A DNA stretch of 64,000 nt, from contig DAHUYE010000008.1 of the NCBI GenBank assembly GCA_027315345.1, forward strand, positions 55,265 to 119,264, given 5' to 3'. Positions 33,450 to 40,206 of the stretch are shown here, in pieces. The DNA comes from Actinomycetota bacterium (GTDB lineage: Bacteria; Actinomycetota; Acidimicrobiia; Acidimicrobiales; JAJPHE01). A program made the translations under genes and the position numbers. The stretch's first letter is position 1. Each line of letters begins with the position of its first letter. The notes beneath the pieces are model-generated. The model worked only from the letters and a program-made list of their open reading frames with translations, ran no database searches and had not been told where the DNA came from.

Positions 33450-33539
33450 GACCGGCCGACGATAGATGGCCGTGGCGCCCCCCGGACCGACCGCGCCACC
33501 GGGGCGGAACGGCCCCTGGCCCTCCTGGTCTCGGCCAGC

Positions 33540-35327
33540 ATGGGCGCCGGCCACGACCTGGCCGCCGCCGAGCTGGCCCGCCGGCTGGAGGCCAGGGGAT
33601 ACCGGACCCGGACCGAGGACTACCTGACCTGGTTCCCGTTGCGGATCGGGCTGCTGCTGCGCTGGATCTACGGCCAGCAGCTGAGGGTGGCGCCGTGGAC
33701 CTATGAGGCGACCTTCAAGCTCTGGATCCTCGTGCCCCTCATGTGCAGGGTGCTGGAGGTGATCCTCGGGATCCTCACCGGCCGGCGGATGCGCCGGTTG
33801 GTCAGCGGCAGTGATCCGGCCGTGATCGTCTGCGCCTATCCGCTCCAGGCCCTGGTGTTGGGGCGCCTGCGCCGGAAGGGGCGCATCGACGTTCCGCTGG
33901 TCACGTTCATCACCGACTTCGGTGTGCATCCGCTCTGGATGCACGAGGGGGTCGACCTGACCGTCTGCGTCTGGGAGGGGGCGGCCCGGGTGGCCTCGGC
34001 GGCCACCAGCCGGGCCGTCGTGTCCACCGGGCCGATGGTGGCGCCGGCCTACGCCGCCGGCCCGCTGCCCAAGGCGGTAGCCAGGGCCGGGCTGGGACTG
34101 CCGCCGGAGGGACGCATCGCCCTGGTGGTGGCGGGTTCCTGGGGTGTGGGCGACATCGAATCCACCTTCGAGGAGTTGTGGGCCACCGGGCGCTACCTGC
34201 CGGTGGCGGTGTGCGGGCGCAACGAGGCGGTGAGGCAGAGTCTGGCCGCCAAAGGCTACGGAGTGGTGCTGGGCTGGACCGACCGCATGCACGAGCTGAT
34301 GTCGGCCTCCGATGTGCTGGTCCAGAACGCCGGGGGTCTGTCCTGCATGGAGGCCTTCTCCCTTGATCTACCCGTGGTCACCTACCACCCGATAGCCGGA
34401 CACGGCCGGAAGAATGCCGCCGAGATGGTGGCGGCCGGGGTCACCCTGCTGGCCACCGGGCCGGCCGATCTCGGGCCCGTCCTGGACCGGGCCACCGGCC
34501 CGGAGCGGGCCGGTCTGGTGGCGGCCGGACGGTCCGTCTTCTCCGGGGATCCGGCCTCCGAGGTCGACCGCCTGGCCCGGGAGGCGGCCGGGGCGAACTC
34601 CGGTCCAGACTTTGCGCCCTCCCGGCCGGCGATGCGGACCCCGGGCGGACGGACGGCGGCCGGATCGGACCGGCCCCACCACCACCGCCGCCGCCGGCGC
34701 ATGGCCGGAGCGGCGTTGGCCCTGGCCACCACCTATGTCGGTCTCAACCTGTGCGTGGATGTCGCCACCGCCCACGGACTGGACGCCGCCCATGCCGAGG
34801 CCGGGGCCCAGGAGGTGTACGTGGCCGTGCGGCTGGGGCCGGCCGCCCTGTCCGATCCCGCTCTCGGCCGCATTCTGGCCGCCGACCACGTCACGGCCGT
34901 TGTGGCCGGCAGCCTGGCCGCTACTGAACCCGCCGCCGTCCGGCGGCTATCCCAGAACGGAGTGGATCTGGCCACCGACGGCTGGCTCGATCGCCAGCCT
35001 CTGCATCTGGTCCAGCCCACCGATGACCTGCTTCGCTCCACCCAGGCCATCCGCCTGGACACGGGTCTGCACTGCCGGGACTTCGCCCCCGCCTCCGGGG
35101 TCAGCGGGGTGGATCTGGCCTCGGCGCTGATGAGCCATGTTCGCATCGTGCGCACCTCCCAACTCCTGCCCACCGACTCGGTGCCAGGGGTGCTGCGGGC
35201 CGGCCACGTCTACATGCTCGGGGCCACCACCGCCTCGGCTGCCACCGTGGAGGCGAGCCTGGCCGAGATCAGTTGGCGGGCCGCCCGGGACGGCCTGGGC
35301 GTGGCGCCCCTGTCCGACCTGCGTTGA
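33540..35327 (+). CDS. MGDG-synthase/GT28-like glycosyltransferase fused to a TM helix and a degenerate NodB-like domain
   Basis: The N-terminal part has (LALLVSAS)MGAGHD..., ITDFGVHPLW, VAGSWGVG and NAGGLSCMEA, as in the UgtP/MGDG-synthase family. Then come HHHRRRRR, a TM helix (34701 onward) and a C-terminal domain paralogous to the next gene but lacking the catalytic motifs. Conserved sequence starts upstream of ATG 33540 (possible CTG at 33516). Confidence 0.7.
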   Translation: MGAGHDLAAAELARRLEARGYRTRTEDYLTWFPLRIGLLLRWIYGQQLRVAPWTYEATFKLWILVPLMCRVLEVILGILTGRRMRRLVSGSDPAVIVCAYPLQALVLGRLRRKGRIDVPLVTFITDFGVHPLWMHEGVDLTVCVWEGAARVASAATSRAVVSTGPMVAPAYAAGPLPKAVARAGLGLPPEGRIALVVAGSWGVGDIESTFEELWATGRYLPVAVCGRNEAVRQSLAAKGYGVVLGWTDRMHELMSASDVLVQNAGGLSCMEAFSLDLPVVTYHPIAGHGRKNAAEMVAAGVTLLATGPADLGPVLDRATGPERAGLVAAGRSVFSGDPASEVDRLAREAAGANSGPDFAPSRPAMRTPGGRTAAGSDRPHHHRRRRRMAGAALALATTYVGLNLCVDVATAHGLDAAHAEAGAQEVYVAVRLGPAALSDPALGRILAADHVTAVVAGSLAATEPAAVRRLSQNGVDLATDGWLDRQPLHLVQPTDDLLRSTQAIRLDTGLHCRDFAPASGVSGVDLASALMSHVRIVRTSQLLPTDSVPGVLRAGHVYMLGATTASAATVEASLAEISWRAARDGLGVAPLSDLR

Positions 35328-36088
35328 CGACGCCGGCCCGGCGCCGGCCCCCGCCGCCACAGCTGGCCTGGCTGGCCGCCGCAACCGCCGGGGCCGGTGC
35401 CGTTTTGGCCCAGACGGCCCCGGCCCTGACCGCGGTGCCGGTGGTGCGCCGGGCGATCTTCCCCCGCCTGACCGGGCTGGGCCGGCCTGACCACGTTGCC
35501 CTCACCTTCGATGACGGCCCGGACCCGGCCTCCACGCCCCAGTTCCTGGCCGAACTGGATCGCCTGGGCTGGAAGGCCACCTTTTTCATGCTCGGGTCCA
35601 TGGCCCGCCGCTCCGGGGGCCTGGCCGCCGAAGTTGCCGCCGCCGGTCACGAGGTGGCCGTCCACGGGGACGTCCACCTGTCCCAGGTGTGGCGGACCCC
35701 CTCGGCCGTCATCGACGACGCCCGGCGGGCCCGGGACACCCTGGCGGAGCTGACCGGGACGACGCCGGCCTGGATGCGCCCCCCCTATGGGACCCTCTCG
35801 GGCGCCGGACCGGAGGCGGCCCGGCGGGCCGGCCTGGAGTTGGTTCTCTGGACGGCGTGGGGGCGGGACTGGCGGGCCGAGGCCACTCCTTCGTCGGTCA
35901 CGGCCGACATCGGCACCGACATGGTCCCCGGCGGCACCGTCCTGCTGCATGATTCCGACTGCACCTCGGCCCCAGGGGCCTGGCGGTCGGCCCTGGGCTC
36001 TCTGGCCCGGTTGGCCGATGTCTGGGCCGGCCGGGGATGGACGGTGGGCCCGCTGCGGGACCACGGCCTGCGCCCCGGTCGGTTCTAG
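35324..36088 (+). CDS. Polysaccharide deacetylase (NodB homology domain), secreted or membrane-anchored
   Basis: Motifs TFDDGP, HGDVH and RPPYG are intact. An N-terminal hydrophobic segment (LAWLAAATAGAGAVLAQTA) is present. TTG at 35324 forms a TTGA overlap with the preceding stop (alternative start 35273). Confidence 0.85.
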   Translation: MTTPARRRPPPPQLAWLAAATAGAGAVLAQTAPALTAVPVVRRAIFPRLTGLGRPDHVALTFDDGPDPASTPQFLAELDRLGWKATFFMLGSMARRSGGLAAEVAAAGHEVAVHGDVHLSQVWRTPSAVIDDARRARDTLAELTGTTPAWMRPPYGTLSGAGPEAARRAGLELVLWTAWGRDWRAEATPSSVTADIGTDMVPGGTVLLHDSDCTSAPGAWRSALGSLARLADVWAGRGWTVGPLRDHGLRPGRF

Positions 36089-36846
36089 GGCCGGCCCGCC
36101 GGTTCCGCCGAGGCCAGCGGCCGGTCCATGCCCCGGTAGCCGCCCAGCCGGCGCCGCACGCCCCACACCGTGACCAGGCCCAGGGCCTCGACCACGGTGT
36201 GCATGGACATCTTGGACTCCCCCGCCACCCGGTCCACGAACCGAATGGGCACCTCGGCGATGCGACCGCCCGCGCTCACCGTCCGGAAGGCCATCTCGAT
36301 CTGGAAGCCGTAGCCGTCAGCCCGGACCTGATCCAGGTCGATGGCCCGCAGGGTGGCGGCGTCGTAGGCCCGGAAGCCGGCGGTCAGATCCCGGATCGAC
36401 ATCCCCAGCATGGCGGCGGCATAGCGGTTGCCCCACTGGGACAGGAGCCGCCGGTGGGTGGCCCAGTTCGGAATGGATCCGCCCGGCACGTAGCGGGATC
36501 CGATGACCAGGTTGGCCCCGCTCAGGCCGGCCAGCAGGTCCGGGAGGGAGTCGGGGTCGTGGGACAGATCGGAGTCCATCTCCACGAAGGCCTCGTAGTC
36601 CCGCTCGAGGCCCCAGCGAAAGCCGGCCCGATAGGCGTTGCCGAGACCGGCCTTACCCGGACGGCGCAGGATCTCGATGCCGCCCAGGCGGGCGGCCACG
36701 GCCGCAGCCAGATCCGCGGTGCCGTCCGGGCTGTTGTCGTCCACCACCAGGACGTGGGCGTCGGGGACCGCTCGGCGGATCCGAACCAGCACGACCTCGA
36801 TGTTGGCGGCCTCGTTGTAGGTGGGCAGCACCACCAAAGCCCGCAT
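36085..36846 (-). CDS. ppm1: Polyprenol-phosphate mannose synthase (GT2, Ppm1/Dpm1-like)
   Basis: ATG at 36846 gives a 253-aa product with MRALVVLPTYNE, VVDDNSPDGT, EMDSDLSHDP, GSRY and VPIRFVDR. Confidence 0.85.
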   Translation of the reverse strand: MRALVVLPTYNEAANIEVVLVRIRRAVPDAHVLVVDDNSPDGTADLAAAVAARLGGIEILRRPGKAGLGNAYRAGFRWGLERDYEAFVEMDSDLSHDPDSLPDLLAGLSGANLVIGSRYVPGGSIPNWATHRRLLSQWGNRYAAAMLGMSIRDLTAGFRAYDAATLRAIDLDQVRADGYGFQIEMAFRTVSAGGRIAEVPIRFVDRVAGESKMSMHTVVEALGLVTVWGVRRRLGGYRGMDRPLASAEPAGRP

Positions 36847-36925
36847 GACCAGGAGTCTAAAGGGCGGCCCCGCCCCGGTCGGACGCGCCAGGCCGGTCCG
36901 ACCCCGCAACTACCGTCACCAACCA

Positions 36926-37750
36926 GTGCCTCCCACGACACCCGACCCCGGCGGGACCTCCAGGCCGGTGCCGGCCGTGCGGCTCCGGGGCGTCCAGGTC
37001 CGCCGGGGGGGCAAGGCCGTCCTGGACGGCGTCGACTGGGAAGTGTCCCCCGGGGACCGCTGGGTGATCCTCGGGCCCAACGGCTCGGGTAAGACCACTC
37101 TCATGAGCCTGATCTGCGGGTTTCTGTACCCCTCGGCCGGCTCGGTCGAGGTGCTGGGCGAGACCCTGGGCCGGGTGGACATCCGCCGTCTCCGGGAGCG
37201 GCTGGGGCTGACCAGTGCGGAGCTGACCAAGCAGCTGCGCCCCGACCTGTCCGCCCTGGACGCGGTGCTGGCCGGCCGCCACGCCGCCCTGGAGACGTGG
37301 TGGCACGAATACACCCCCGAGGACCGGGACCGGGCGGCCGCCTTGCTGGAGGCGGCCGGGCTCGCCCCCCTGGGCGGCCACGCCTTCCGGACCCTCTCCG
37401 AGGGCGAGCGCCAGCAGATCCTCCTGGCCCGGGCCCTCATGGGCGAACCCGAGCTGCTCCTCCTTGACGAGCCGAATGCCGGTCTGGACGTCGGGGCCCG
37501 GGAGCGGCTGTTGAGCCGGCTCACGGCCGTGGCCACCGCCACCGGCAGCCCGCCCATGGTCCTGGTCACCCATCACCTGGAGGAGATTCCGGCCGGCTTC
37601 ACCCACGGCCTCCTGCTGAGGCAGGGACGGATCATCGCCCTCGGTCCTCTGGCCCGGACCCTGACTTCCGCCGCTCTGTCCGAATGCTTCGGGCTGCCCC
37701 TACGGGTGGTCCGCCACGGGCCCCGCTTCGCCTGCCACGCTGTGGCCTAA
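36926..37750 (+). CDS. ABC transporter ATP-binding protein (no adjacent permease)
   Basis: Walker A GPNGSGKTT, signature LSEGERQQ, Walker B LLLLDEP and H-loop THH. The start is uncertain (GTG 36926 preferred; ATG 36845 would overlap the ppm1 start). Confidence 0.8.
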   Translation: MPPTTPDPGGTSRPVPAVRLRGVQVRRGGKAVLDGVDWEVSPGDRWVILGPNGSGKTTLMSLICGFLYPSAGSVEVLGETLGRVDIRRLRERLGLTSAELTKQLRPDLSALDAVLAGRHAALETWWHEYTPEDRDRAAALLEAAGLAPLGGHAFRTLSEGERQQILLARALMGEPELLLLDEPNAGLDVGARERLLSRLTAVATATGSPPMVLVTHHLEEIPAGFTHGLLLRQGRIIALGPLARTLTSAALSECFGLPLRVVRHGPRFACHAVA

Positions 37751-37754
37751 GCCC

Positions 37755-38828
37755 ATGGCCCGGCTCTCCATTCCCAAGGCGCTTCGGCGGGTCGTGAGCG
37801 TGACCCTGCTGGCGGCCGTGGTCGAGTACCTGGTGCTTCCCCAAGTGGCTGGGGCCCGAAAGGCCCTCCACCTGGTCAGCCAGCTCAACGCCGGCCTGTT
37901 CGGTCTGGGGGTGGCCCTGGAGGTCCTGTCCCTTTTGGCCTACTCCCAGCTGACCCGCTCGCTTTTGCCTCGAGGCAGTCTCCGCCTCAACCGCATCTTC
38001 CGCATCAACCTGTCCACCCTGTCGGTCTCCCACGTGGTTCCGGGCGGGACGGCGGCCGGGGCCAGCCTGGGCTACCGGCTCCTGACCGCATCCGGGGTCA
38101 AGGGGCCCGACACCGGATTCGCCCTCGGTATGCAGGGACTGGGCTCGGCCGTGGTCCTCAACGCCCTGCTGTGGGCCGGTCTGGTGGTGTCCATCCCGGT
38201 CTACGGCTTCAACCCCATCTACGGGGTGGCGGCCGGCCTGGGCGTGCTGCTGATCGGGTTCCTGTCCGTCATCGTCCTGCTCATGACCCGGGGCGTGGAT
38301 CGGGCCGCCACCGTGCTGCGGACGGTGGCCCGGAAGCTTCCGCTCATCACCGAGGACGCCACCGAGGCCGTCTTCCGCCGGGTGGCGGTGCGCCTACAGG
38401 AGCTGACATCGGACTCGGCCCGCCTGGCCCGCTGCATCGGCTGGGCCGCCGCCAACTGGCTCCTGGATGCCGCCTCCCTGTGGGTCTTCCTGGCCGCCTT
38501 CGGCCACGGCCACGGTCGCTTCCCCAACCCGGTTGGCCTCATCGTGGCCTACGGCCTGGCCAACGTCCTGGCCGCCATCCCCATCACCCCAGGCGGCCTG
38601 GGAGTGGTCGAGGGGGTGCTCACCCCGGCCCTGGTCGGCTTCGGCCTGACCAAGTCGGTGGCCATCCTCGGCGTGCTGGGCTGGCGGCTCATCAACTTCT
38701 GGCTGCCGATTCCGACCGGAGCGGCCGCCTACCTCAGCCTCCGGCTGGAGTCGGAGCGCTCCGACACCCCGGAGCAGAAGCTGTCGCCCTACGCCGAGTC
38801 CCTGGACCAGAGCCGCCGGGGCCTGTAG
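37755..38828 (+). CDS. Flippase-like membrane protein (LPG_synthase_TM / UPF0104 family)
   Basis: 357 aa with about 8 TM helices and the characteristic ITPGGLGVVEGVL motif near the C-terminus. It starts 4 nt after the ABC ATPase stop. Confidence 0.72.
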   Translation: MARLSIPKALRRVVSVTLLAAVVEYLVLPQVAGARKALHLVSQLNAGLFGLGVALEVLSLLAYSQLTRSLLPRGSLRLNRIFRINLSTLSVSHVVPGGTAAGASLGYRLLTASGVKGPDTGFALGMQGLGSAVVLNALLWAGLVVSIPVYGFNPIYGVAAGLGVLLIGFLSVIVLLMTRGVDRAATVLRTVARKLPLITEDATEAVFRRVAVRLQELTSDSARLARCIGWAAANWLLDAASLWVFLAAFGHGHGRFPNPVGLIVAYGLANVLAAIPITPGGLGVVEGVLTPALVGFGLTKSVAILGVLGWRLINFWLPIPTGAAAYLSLRLESERSDTPEQKLSPYAESLDQSRRGL

Positions 38829-38886
38829 CCCCCCACCCTCCGGCGGACTGAACCGGCCCACCGGGCGCCCTAGCTACTCTGAGCGG

Positions 38887-40206
38887 GTGGCGTCCATGAC
38901 GACGGCGGGTCGGGCCCGCGCCCTGGTGGCTCCCACCTCGCCCCGGAACACCGAACTGGGCCTGCTCGGTCTGGTCGCCCTGGTCACGGTGGCCGCCTAC
39001 ATCCTGGCCACCCTGGGCCGGGCGGCGTCCATACCGGCCAACATCATTCCGTTCCTGGCCTTCCTCCTGACCCTGCTCCTGGTAGCTCATGTGGCCACCC
39101 GCCGCCTTGCTCCCAACGCCACCCCGGTGATCCTGCCCCTGGCCGCCTTCCTCAACGGGATCGGCTATGTCTTCATCACCCGGCTCGACTCCCACCTGGC
39201 CGGTCTACAGGCGACCTGGACCGCCATCGGCGTGGCCGGTTACGTCCTGACCCTGGCCTTCATCCGGCGCGTCCAGGTGCTGGAGCGCTACCGCTACATG
39301 ATCGCCACCGCCGGGGTTCTGCTCCTGCTCATGCCCCTGGCCCCCGGTGTGGGCGAGCGCATCAACGGGGCCCGCCTCTGGGTCCGGCTGGGTCCGCTCA
39401 GTTTCCAGCCGGTGGAGCTGGCCAAGATCGGCCTGGCCGTGTTCTTCGCCTCCTACCTGGTGGAAAAGCGCGAGCTGCTGGCCAATCCCACCTCCCGGGT
39501 GGGCAATGTCCTGCTCCCCGACCCCCGCCCCTTCGGTCCCCTCCTGCTCATGTGGGGCCTGTCCATGCTGGTCATGACGGCGGAGAAGGATGTGGGCTTC
39601 TCCCTTCTCATCTTCGTGTTGTTCATCTCCATGCTGTGGATTTCGACCGGGCGGGCGACCTACCTGCTGGTCTCCGTCGGCCTGTTCGGGCTGGGGGCCG
39701 CGGTGATGAGCGTCCTTCTGAGCCAGGTGCACGAGCGCATCACCGTCTGGCTCAACCCGTGGCCCTACGCCAGCGGCATCGGCTACCAGGCCATCCAGGC
39801 TCTCTACGCCATGGGCAGTGGAGGGGTGGCCGGGACCGGCCTGGGGCTGGGGAGGCCCACCTTGATACCGGTCGTGGCGAGCGACTACATCTTCGCCGGG
39901 CTGGGCGAGGAACTGGGCCTGGTCGGCACCACCGTCATCGTGGCCGCCTTCGTACTGTTGGTGAGCTCCGGGCTACGGACGGCCGTGCGAGCCCGGTCCG
40001 ACTTCGCCAAGCTCCTCACCGCCGGGCTGACCGCCGTCATCGGGTTCCAGGCCTTCTTCATCATGGCCGGGGTGGTCCGGCTCCTGCCCGTGACCGGTGT
40101 GACCCTCCCCTTCGTCGCCTATGGGGGGTCCTCCCTGGTGGCCAACTACATCCTCCTCGCCCTCATGGCCCGGGTATCGGACGAGTCCGTCCCCGCTGCC
40201 CACTGA
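38887..40206 (+). CDS. FtsW/RodA/SpoVE (SEDS) family peptidoglycan glycosyltransferase
   Basis: 439 aa, polytopic, with ...GYQAIQALYAMGSGGVAGTGLG...SDYIFAGLGEELGLVG...VTLPFVAYGGSSLVANY. Confidence 0.87.
   Translation: MASMTTAGRARALVAPTSPRNTELGLLGLVALVTVAAYILATLGRAASIPANIIPFLAFLLTLLLVAHVATRRLAPNATPVILPLAAFLNGIGYVFITRLDSHLAGLQATWTAIGVAGYVLTLAFIRRVQVLERYRYMIATAGVLLLLMPLAPGVGERINGARLWVRLGPLSFQPVELAKIGLAVFFASYLVEKRELLANPTSRVGNVLLPDPRPFGPLLLMWGLSMLVMTAEKDVGFSLLIFVLFISMLWISTGRATYLLVSVGLFGLGAAVMSVLLSQVHERITVWLNPWPYASGIGYQAIQALYAMGSGGVAGTGLGLGRPTLIPVVASDYIFAGLGEELGLVGTTVIVAAFVLLVSSGLRTAVRARSDFAKLLTAGLTAVIGFQAFFIMAGVVRLLPVTGVTLPFVAYGGSSLVANYILLALMARVSDESVPAAH

Follow-up and report, generated by a model that had tools for sequence, protein, structure and literature searches.

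A glycosyltransferase of Acidimicrobiia fused to a predicted NodB-fold domain that lacks the CE4 catalytic residues

We analyzed a 64,000-nucleotide stretch (hereafter the window) of contig DAHUYE010000008.1 from the Acidimicrobiales assembly GCA_027315345.1, focusing on a forward-strand open reading frame (ORF) that ends with the stop codon at 35325-35327 and on the deacetylase gene that follows it. Profile comparisons and structural modeling indicate that the C-terminal module of the encoded protein is a NodB fold from which all CE4 catalytic and metal-binding residues have been lost, joined to an N-terminal glycosyltransferase (GT) through a predicted transmembrane (TM) helix. On balance, we favor the reading that this inactive domain serves at the outer membrane surface as a non-catalytic module for binding or scaffolding, in concert with the active CE4 enzyme encoded next door. 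An earlier note on this DNA, written from the sequence alone, had described a degenerate NodB domain fused behind a GT and adjacent to an intact CE4 gene, and this arrangement, including the predicted TM helix between the two domains, is upheld here.

The reading frame is continuous, and its last 208 codons (34701-35324) encode a hydrophobic helix followed by a domain of ~170 amino acids (aa). From the N terminus, the fusion consists of a GT-B glycosyltransferase, a variable linker, the run HHHRRRRR, a 24-residue hydrophobic helix starting at Met 34701 (Met388 of the fusion protein), and the C-terminal domain; residue numbers such as R44, T92, and G174 are positions in the 208-codon module. 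A full-length homolog search identified hundreds of 570-610-aa proteins that share this architecture. The G+C content of the window is 67-77%. The parts of the fusion and its partner gene are as follows.

33540-34589, forward strand: GT-B glycosyltransferase domain (GT28, MGDG-synthase or diglucosyl-diacylglycerol-synthase type), residues 1-350 counted from ATG 33540, assigned from PF06925, PF04101, NCBIfam, and PDB matches
34590-34700, forward strand: Pro/Gly/Arg-rich linker ending in HHHRRRRR (34677-34700), variable in length and sequence in alignment A3, with the Arg run conserved
34701-34772, forward strand: single predicted TM helix (MAGAALALATTYVGLNLCVDVATA), from an AlphaFold (AF2) helix at residues 2-24, Kyte-Doolittle hydropathy, and the small-residue motif G14xxxC/G18xxxA22xA24xG26
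34809-35324, forward strand: pseudo-NodB (CE4-fold) domain, predicted to be extracytoplasmic, from Foldseek, the family profile against PDB, hhalign, and substitution rates
35324-36088, forward strand: CE4/NodB deacetylase, intact, its N terminus bearing an Arg run and a hydrophobic anchor or signal (PF01522, E 2.8e-27; PDB CE4 matches to E 1.4e-21)

A NodB fold without the CE4 catalytic residues

The similarity of the C-terminal domain to CE4 enzymes is not apparent from single sequences. The earlier note had aligned the domain segment by segment with the downstream deacetylase; a pairwise BLASTP comparison of the 208-aa module with that protein is not significant (E 0.56), the window domain alone matches PF01522 (Polysacc_deac_1) at E 0.13 and 12.6 bits, below the cut-off of 23.1, and a hidden Markov model (HMM) of the neighbor's orthologs gives it only 14 bits. 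A word-indexed search with the domain alone retrieved 2 proteins, whereas an exhaustive HMM search retrieved 97 cluster representatives of the module. Related loci were found with the full-length alignment, the module alignment itself having no conserved stretch of 7-10 residues. For the comparisons below, the family profile of the module was a 42-sequence alignment (A2), the neighbor family comprised 67 orthologs, and motif columns were read in a 167-sequence alignment.

At the family level, the relationship becomes evident. PF01522 is matched at E<=1 by 22 of the 42 module family members (best, 1.1e-6), and 10 of the 11 PDB sequence matches of the family profile are CE4 enzymes, led by 2cc0 at E 1.4e-4. 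Aligning the module family with the 67 orthologs of the neighbor using hhalign yields a probability of 93.3 and a P value of 2.7e-7 over 162 columns, and it reproduces the segment pairings of the earlier note, which pairwise BLASTP had not validated. The hhalign score of 53.0 compares with at most 18.8 for eight column-shuffled alignments, 24.9 for the reversed alignment, and 15.7 for the GT domain, so the prospect that a profile alignment might show no significant similarity to the NodB fold was not realized. Modeling agrees: the predicted local distance difference test (pLDDT) score of the AF2 model rises from 61 with a 3-sequence alignment to 89.9 with the family alignment, and its top 32 Foldseek matches in PDB are all CE4 structures, the best being BA3943 at E 2.3e-9. 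By these profile and model comparisons the module is confirmed as a genuine NodB (CE4) fold domain, detectable at those two levels only and not from the window sequence by itself.

Mapped through hhalign, the five CE4 motifs (MT1-MT5) have the following counterparts in the module.

34821-34841, forward strand: VAVRLGP in place of MT1 (LTFDDGP in the neighbor); R44 replaces the catalytic-base Asp and L45 a metal-binding Asp
34974-34988, forward strand: TDGWL in place of MT2 (HGDVH, with the H-x-x-x-H metal ligands); T92 and L96 replace both His residues, and the family consensus is NGGWG
35082-35099, forward strand: FAPASG in place of MT3 (RPPYG); A129 replaces the Arg, and only the Pro (P130) is kept
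MT4 (the WGRDW loop in the neighbor): absent from the window module through a 7-residue deletion
35211-35225, forward strand: YMLGA in place of MT5 (LLHDS), MLGAT being paired with LLHDS; G174 lies at the catalytic-acid His, and the family consensus is Asp/Asn

The replacements proposed earlier for MT1, MT2, and MT3 are recovered by the profile mapping. For MT5, the proposed pairing was off by one residue, and the loss of the catalytic His was correct, leaving the conclusion unaffected. An active CE4 enzyme needs the MT1 Asp-Asp pair, the MT2 H-x-x-x-H, the MT3 Arg, the MT4 Asp, and the MT5 His, and the window module has none of them.

This condition extends well beyond the window. In the 167-sequence alignment, the prevailing residues are R at position 44 (154 sequences), N at 92 (129), G at 96 (123), and D or N at 174 (141); the Asp-Asp of MT1, the two His residues of MT2, and the His of MT5 never occur in those columns. 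Because these residues are absent from the relatives, the degeneracy is ancestral to the whole Acidimicrobiia family and not a local event. We also considered whether catalytic residues had been recovered at shifted positions, and rejected this: a single His (H146) is well conserved, it aligns where a beta-strand begins, ahead of the deleted MT4 loop, and the family has no conserved Asp-His-His set.

The membrane helix and the glycosyltransferase

The closest public locus to the window (L001) comes from an Acidimicrobiales soil metagenome-assembled genome (MAG) and is 88% identical at the protein level. Identity to L001 falls to 47% in the linker, compared with 88-94% in the domains. We read HHHRRRRR at the end of the linker as the positive-inside flank of the TM helix that follows, whose Kyte-Doolittle mean over a 19-residue window is 1.58. 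Toward the outer end of this helix (34740-34778), A22, A24, and G26 are near-invariant in both the 167- and 42-sequence alignments: position 22 is A in 141 of the 167 sequences and V in 16, position 24 is A in 138 and S in 8, and G26 is the sole invariant residue of the whole C-terminal module. The pattern G14xxxG/C18xxxA22xA24xG26 may represent a glycine zipper for helix packing or, alternatively, an AxA site for signal peptidase.

The second of these alternatives would make the helix an internal signal peptide, with signal peptidase I cutting after A22-x-A24 and freeing a soluble 184-aa pseudo-NodB from a membrane-anchored GT, so that two polypeptides would arise post-translationally. The succession of an Arg run, a hydrophobic stretch, near-invariant small residues at 22 and 24, and an invariant G26 does resemble an n-h-c signal with an AxA site. 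Signal peptidase rejects Asp at the -1 position, however, and 12 of the 167 relatives carry Asp there; small-residue i/i+4 zippers are typical of TM helix packing, and the same residues fit such a zipper (G14, G18, A22, and G26). We therefore regard cleavage as distinctly unlikely.

Two proteins could also arise at translation, and the earlier note had left room for a separate protein starting at ATG 34701. The ATG is in frame, and one metagenomic gene call (P0002, 208 aa) begins at it; this call derives from a 1.4-kb contig. In relatives (alignment A3), L, I, V, or A stands in place of this Met, the frame from GT to module is unbroken in 78 of 80 loci from sampled Acidimicrobiia MAGs, and no purine-rich ribosome-binding site precedes the ATG (upstream sequence ccgccgccgccggcgcATG). 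Proteins of 200-350 aa that seemed to consist of the domain alone were discarded as fragments, every one carrying the C-terminal end of the GT. Together, these observations make an internal start unlikely on sequence grounds, and we give a separately translated domain almost no weight.

The N-terminal domain belongs to GT28. PF06925 (MGDG_synth) matches it at E 2.6e-11 and 44.3 bits (cut-off, 25) and PF04101 at 23 bits (cut-off, 22), and its best solved relatives are a processive diacylglycerol beta-glucosyltransferase (9wde, E 7e-24) and plant MGD1 (4wyi, E 1.8e-16). The motifs MGAGHD, QNAGGLSCMEAF, and PIAGHGRKNA are conserved, and the residues invariant across the family are all present in the window protein (alignment A3); the PF06925 N-domain and a GT28 C-domain with GxGH and nucleotide-sugar-binding motifs place it in the family below equivalog level. 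The NCBIfam model for diglucosyl diacylglycerol synthase scores 101 bits (E 5e-29) against an equivalog cut-off of 500; with scores this far below equivalog cut-offs, the sugar and product are not assignable from family matches. Two relatives of 820-860 aa (P0162 and P0213) are triple fusions in which a PAP2_3 (phosphatidate-phosphatase-type) domain precedes the MGDG-synthase GT, the TM helix, and the pseudo-NodB. These proteins suggest that phosphatidate is converted to diacylglycerol to supply the GT, and they point to diacylglycerol as its acceptor, which we consider probable.

The start of the GT may lie upstream of 33540. No canonical start codon occurs upstream of its conserved first beta-strand, PLALLVSAS (window 33451-33542); the codon that is GTG in L001 and ATG in P0004 is CGG in the window. 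This leaves only CTG 33516 or ATG 33540, the latter removing strand beta-1, and gene callers picked 33540 for an identical protein (P0003). The strongest hydrophobic segment of the fusion (LWILVPLMCRVLEVILGIL, 33720-33776, Kyte-Doolittle mean 2.23) sits inside the GT N-domain and is probably an interfacial membrane-binding helix, not a TM span.

The neighboring deacetylase, distribution, and selection

The start of the downstream deacetylase gene, TTG at 35324, overlaps the TGA stop of the fusion (TTGA). As the earlier note had stated, this protein appears catalytically intact: it retains TFDDGP, HGDVH, RPPYG, WGRDW, and LLHDSD, and the same five motifs are conserved in its 67 orthologs. An intact CE4 gene lies immediately 3' of the fusion in 73 of the 80 loci, and stop and start codons overlap as NTGA in at least 17 loci as well as in the window. 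A search for promoter-like or terminator-like sites between the GT and the deacetylase found none, a result that is uninformative for an organism of 72-76% G+C.

The fusion of GT and module is found in Acidimicrobiia, the sampled members all being known only as MAGs. Two loci (L034 and L053) come from MAGs labeled Burkholderiales and Bifidobacteriaceae and are probably mis-binned contigs. Relatives of ~365-390 aa that consist of the GT only, without the TM helix or module (P0083, P0090, P0095, P0098, and P0099), nest inside the fusion clade. They are 60-65% identical to the window GT, like its nearest fusion cousins, whereas most fusion forms are 51-56% identical. Since these GT-only forms are nearer to the window than most fusions, we take them to reflect secondary loss of the module.

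Where it is present, the module is kept by purifying selection, as judged from substitutions between the window and L001: the ratio of nonsynonymous to synonymous rates (dN/dS) is lowest for the GT (0.066), followed by the TM helix (0.106) and the pseudo-NodB module (0.129). It also diverges fastest across the family, with a mean distance of 1.53 for the C-terminal domain versus 0.70 for the GT and 0.69 for the CE4, an approximately 2-fold faster rate. Distance matrices of the C-terminal domain and the CE4 correlate beyond what the GT accounts for (partial r 0.52; reached by 0 of 300 permutations). As a sign of co-evolution between domain and deacetylase this is weak, since distances that accumulate at such unequal rates are not linearly related.

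The earlier note had also derived the module from a tandem duplication of the deacetylase gene, and a specific event of this kind is not demonstrable, because the neighbor's orthologs score no better against the module profile (maximum 25.1 bits, median 15) than does the Streptomyces (S. lividans) acetylxylan esterase 2cc0 (24.5 bits). By these scores, the module is no closer to the neighbor's family than to an unrelated CE4 family; the divergence is too deep for them to decide, and an ancient duplication remains compatible. The only specific hint of duplication is the layout common to the module and the deacetylase, namely an Arg run, a hydrophobic helix, and a NodB domain.

Downstream of the deacetylase, the window contains a possible envelope cluster (36085-40206) that comprises a GT2 polyprenyl-phosphate hexose synthase-like gene, an ABC ATPase, an MprF-type flippase-like gene, and an FtsW/RodA-type gene. 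Synteny of this cluster with the GT-CE4 pair extends to L001 and L002 and, in part, to ~15 other loci. The last 4 nt of the deacetylase gene (36085-36088) are shared, tail to tail, with the convergent GT2 gene, and the listed ABC-ATPase ORF overlaps the start of the GT2 gene by ~89 nt (36821-36909), the real ABC-ATPase start probably lying later. Two of these genes are recorded as context only.

36085-36909, reverse strand: GT2 polyprenyl-phosphate hexose synthase-like gene, convergent (PF00535, E 1.8e-24; NCBIfam AglJ, dolichyl-P hexose transferase, and PpgS-like models all below cut-off), syntenic in a minority of loci
37755-38828, forward strand: MprF-type flippase-like membrane protein (PF03706, E 1.2e-22; TIGR00374 above its cut-off), syntenic in ~15 loci

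A candidate role for the inactive module

We envisage the fusion as a single bitopic protein made up of the GT, a flexible linker, the Arg run, one TM helix, and a NodB-fold ectodomain incapable of CE4 chemistry. The GT28-type lipid glycosyltransferase would be cytoplasmic, the Arg run setting the GT inside and the module outside. The GT would make an acetylated glycosyl-diacylglycerol carrying N-acetylhexosamine, and the active CE4, translationally coupled and anchored in the membrane, would remove the acetyl group from this product outside the membrane. The inactive module would hold either the flipped acetylated glycolipid or the deacetylase itself at the site of synthesis. We infer the out-facing topology, the diacylglycerol acceptor, the N-acetylhexosamine product, and the binding or docking role, the last of which is plausible; the link of the module to the deacetylase derives from the position of the CE4 gene directly downstream in most loci and the frequent stop/start overlap. 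In a stronger version of this proposal, which we rate as a minority possibility, the inactive NodB ectodomain would be an obligate non-catalytic subunit of the adjacent CE4, presenting substrate to it or activating it, and together with the GT would form a trans-membrane assembly line that converts N-acetylhexosaminyl-diacylglycerol made inside into a cationic aminosugar glycolipid outside.

Several observations weigh against a binding or scaffolding module that works with the deacetylase. The hydrophobicity of the TM helix is borderline, and its topology is deduced from the positive-inside rule alone. In the alignments, only R44 and Y171 are polar residues conserved at >=90% within the old active-site motifs, so a precisely conserved ligand site is not evident, and the clade of the window has replaced the family-typical N92, G93, G96, R132/R133, D135, E147, and D174. 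One GT-only locus (L060, 5956-7859) still has a CE4 gene directly next door, and the deacetylase can therefore do without the module; conversely, the module is present without a CE4 gene within the flank in 6 loci. The replaced residues and the loss of the module in neighboring lineages suggest a role that is accessory and scaffold-like rather than essential.

The 6 loci without an adjacent CE4 gene would suit a module that acts independently of the deacetylase, binding peptidoglycan or another wall polymer and thereby positioning the glycolipid synthase. Models for such a cell-wall or glycan anchor exist in BA0330/BA0331 of Bacillus anthracis, inactive CE4 proteins documented to stabilize the cell wall (PMC4505593), and an FtsW/RodA-type gene lies 3.5 kb downstream of the fusion, syntenic in L001 and L002. 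That synteny is confined to the closest relatives, however, and a CE4 gene next door in 73 of 80 loci, often with overlapping stop and start codons, speaks for a link to the deacetylase; we consider a wall anchor unlikely. It is also conceivable that the fold has acquired a new, metal-independent catalytic site acting on the glycolipid or another substrate, as in PuuE allantoinases. Metal-independent NodB-fold enzymes exist (PMC10967932), and the old motif positions hold family-typical polar residues (R44, N92, R132/R133, D135, H146-E147-R148, and D174). Against this stand the two residues conserved at >=90%, the replacement of most of the others in the clade of the window, and an evolutionary rate about twice that of the GT and CE4, which is atypical for a constrained active site, and we judge such an enzyme very improbable.

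The loss of all catalytic motifs, the later loss of the module in some lineages, and its position as the fastest evolving of the three modules could also describe a functionless remnant, in which a duplicated deacetylase gene was fused in frame and is now decaying. A dN/dS of 0.13, a frame intact in nearly all sampled loci, and a confident, well-packed AF2 model speak against decay; this explanation, already disfavored, has in our view only a slender chance of being correct. The pseudo-NodB is instead a kept accessory module, not a decaying relic.

Inactive CE4 proteins have been documented before: BA3943, BA0150, and the Encephalitozoon cuniculi CDA (EcCDA; PMC10967932), and BA0330/BA0331 (PMC4505593). 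The structures that best match the model of the module are those of BA3943 and BA0150 of B. anthracis (PDB 7bkf, 6hm9, and 4m1b), also NodB folds whose catalytic machinery is disabled (E 2.3e-9 to 1e-8; TM-score 0.64-0.68, normalized to query length). BA3943 is deposited in PDB as "a CE4 family pseudoenzyme," and the title of entry 6hm9 reports activity restored by mutation. Both occur on their own, as proteins of secreted or sporulation type, and only some of their residues have been lost, whereas in the window module all five motifs are gone, MT4 is deleted, identity to them is 14-18%, and the domain is fused to a GT. The lipoproteins BA0330/BA0331 and EcCDA (2vyo) are membrane- or wall-associated CE4 folds without deacetylase activity; in EcCDA, the His residues of MT2, the Asp of MT1, and the Arg of MT3 are missing (PMC10967932). 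Unlike the fusion, they belong to other lineages and have neither a fused GT nor a conserved pairing with an active CE4 gene.

In Streptomyces MatB (SCO2962/SLI_3306), in IcaA and IcaB, and in PgaC and PgaB, a GT and a NodB domain encoded as a single polypeptide or within a single operon face opposite sides of the membrane (PMC4391728). In MatB, the NodB-like deacetylase domain is N-terminal and fused to a GT2 polysaccharide synthase that is an integral membrane protein (PMC4391728). The window fusion differs in that its NodB copy is inactive and placed at the C terminus, its GT is a lipid glycosyltransferase of the GT-B type, and the active deacetylase has a gene of its own. Its first 350 aa fall in the same family as the processive diacylglycerol glucosyltransferase UgtP/YpfP and plant MGD1 (GT28); neither in the window nor in the GT-only relatives does the GT28 part itself include a TM helix or an ectodomain. 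Our literature searches found no described MGDG-synthase/deacetylase fusion, no relevant glucosamine- or N-acetylglucosamine-diacylglycerol (GlcN/GlcNAc-diacylglycerol) pathway, and no description of a fully inactive NodB fused C-terminally to a GT28 lipid GT and paired with a separate active CE4. Inactive CE4 proteins and GT-NodB fusions with an active deacetylase and a GT2 synthase are thus known already; what appears new is the fully inactive C-terminal NodB on a GT28 lipid GT.

These findings bear on annotation as well as on biology. Database labels of the relatives are inconsistent ("MGDG synthase family glycosyltransferase," "glycosyltransferase," and "polysaccharide deacetylase family protein"), and the last of these, judging from the residues lost, wrongly implies deacetylase activity. 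CE4 pseudoenzymes have so far been known only as stand-alone proteins, and here an inactive NodB domain appears to be wired across the membrane to a lipid GT and, throughout the sampled Acidimicrobiia, paired with an active CE4 gene. Were the assembly line proposed above to prove true, both the lipid class and the pairing of pseudoenzyme and enzyme would be new for Acidimicrobiia. The fusion offers a defined, testable system for the role of a dead carbohydrate esterase and for the glycolipid made by these abundant soil and water actinobacteria.

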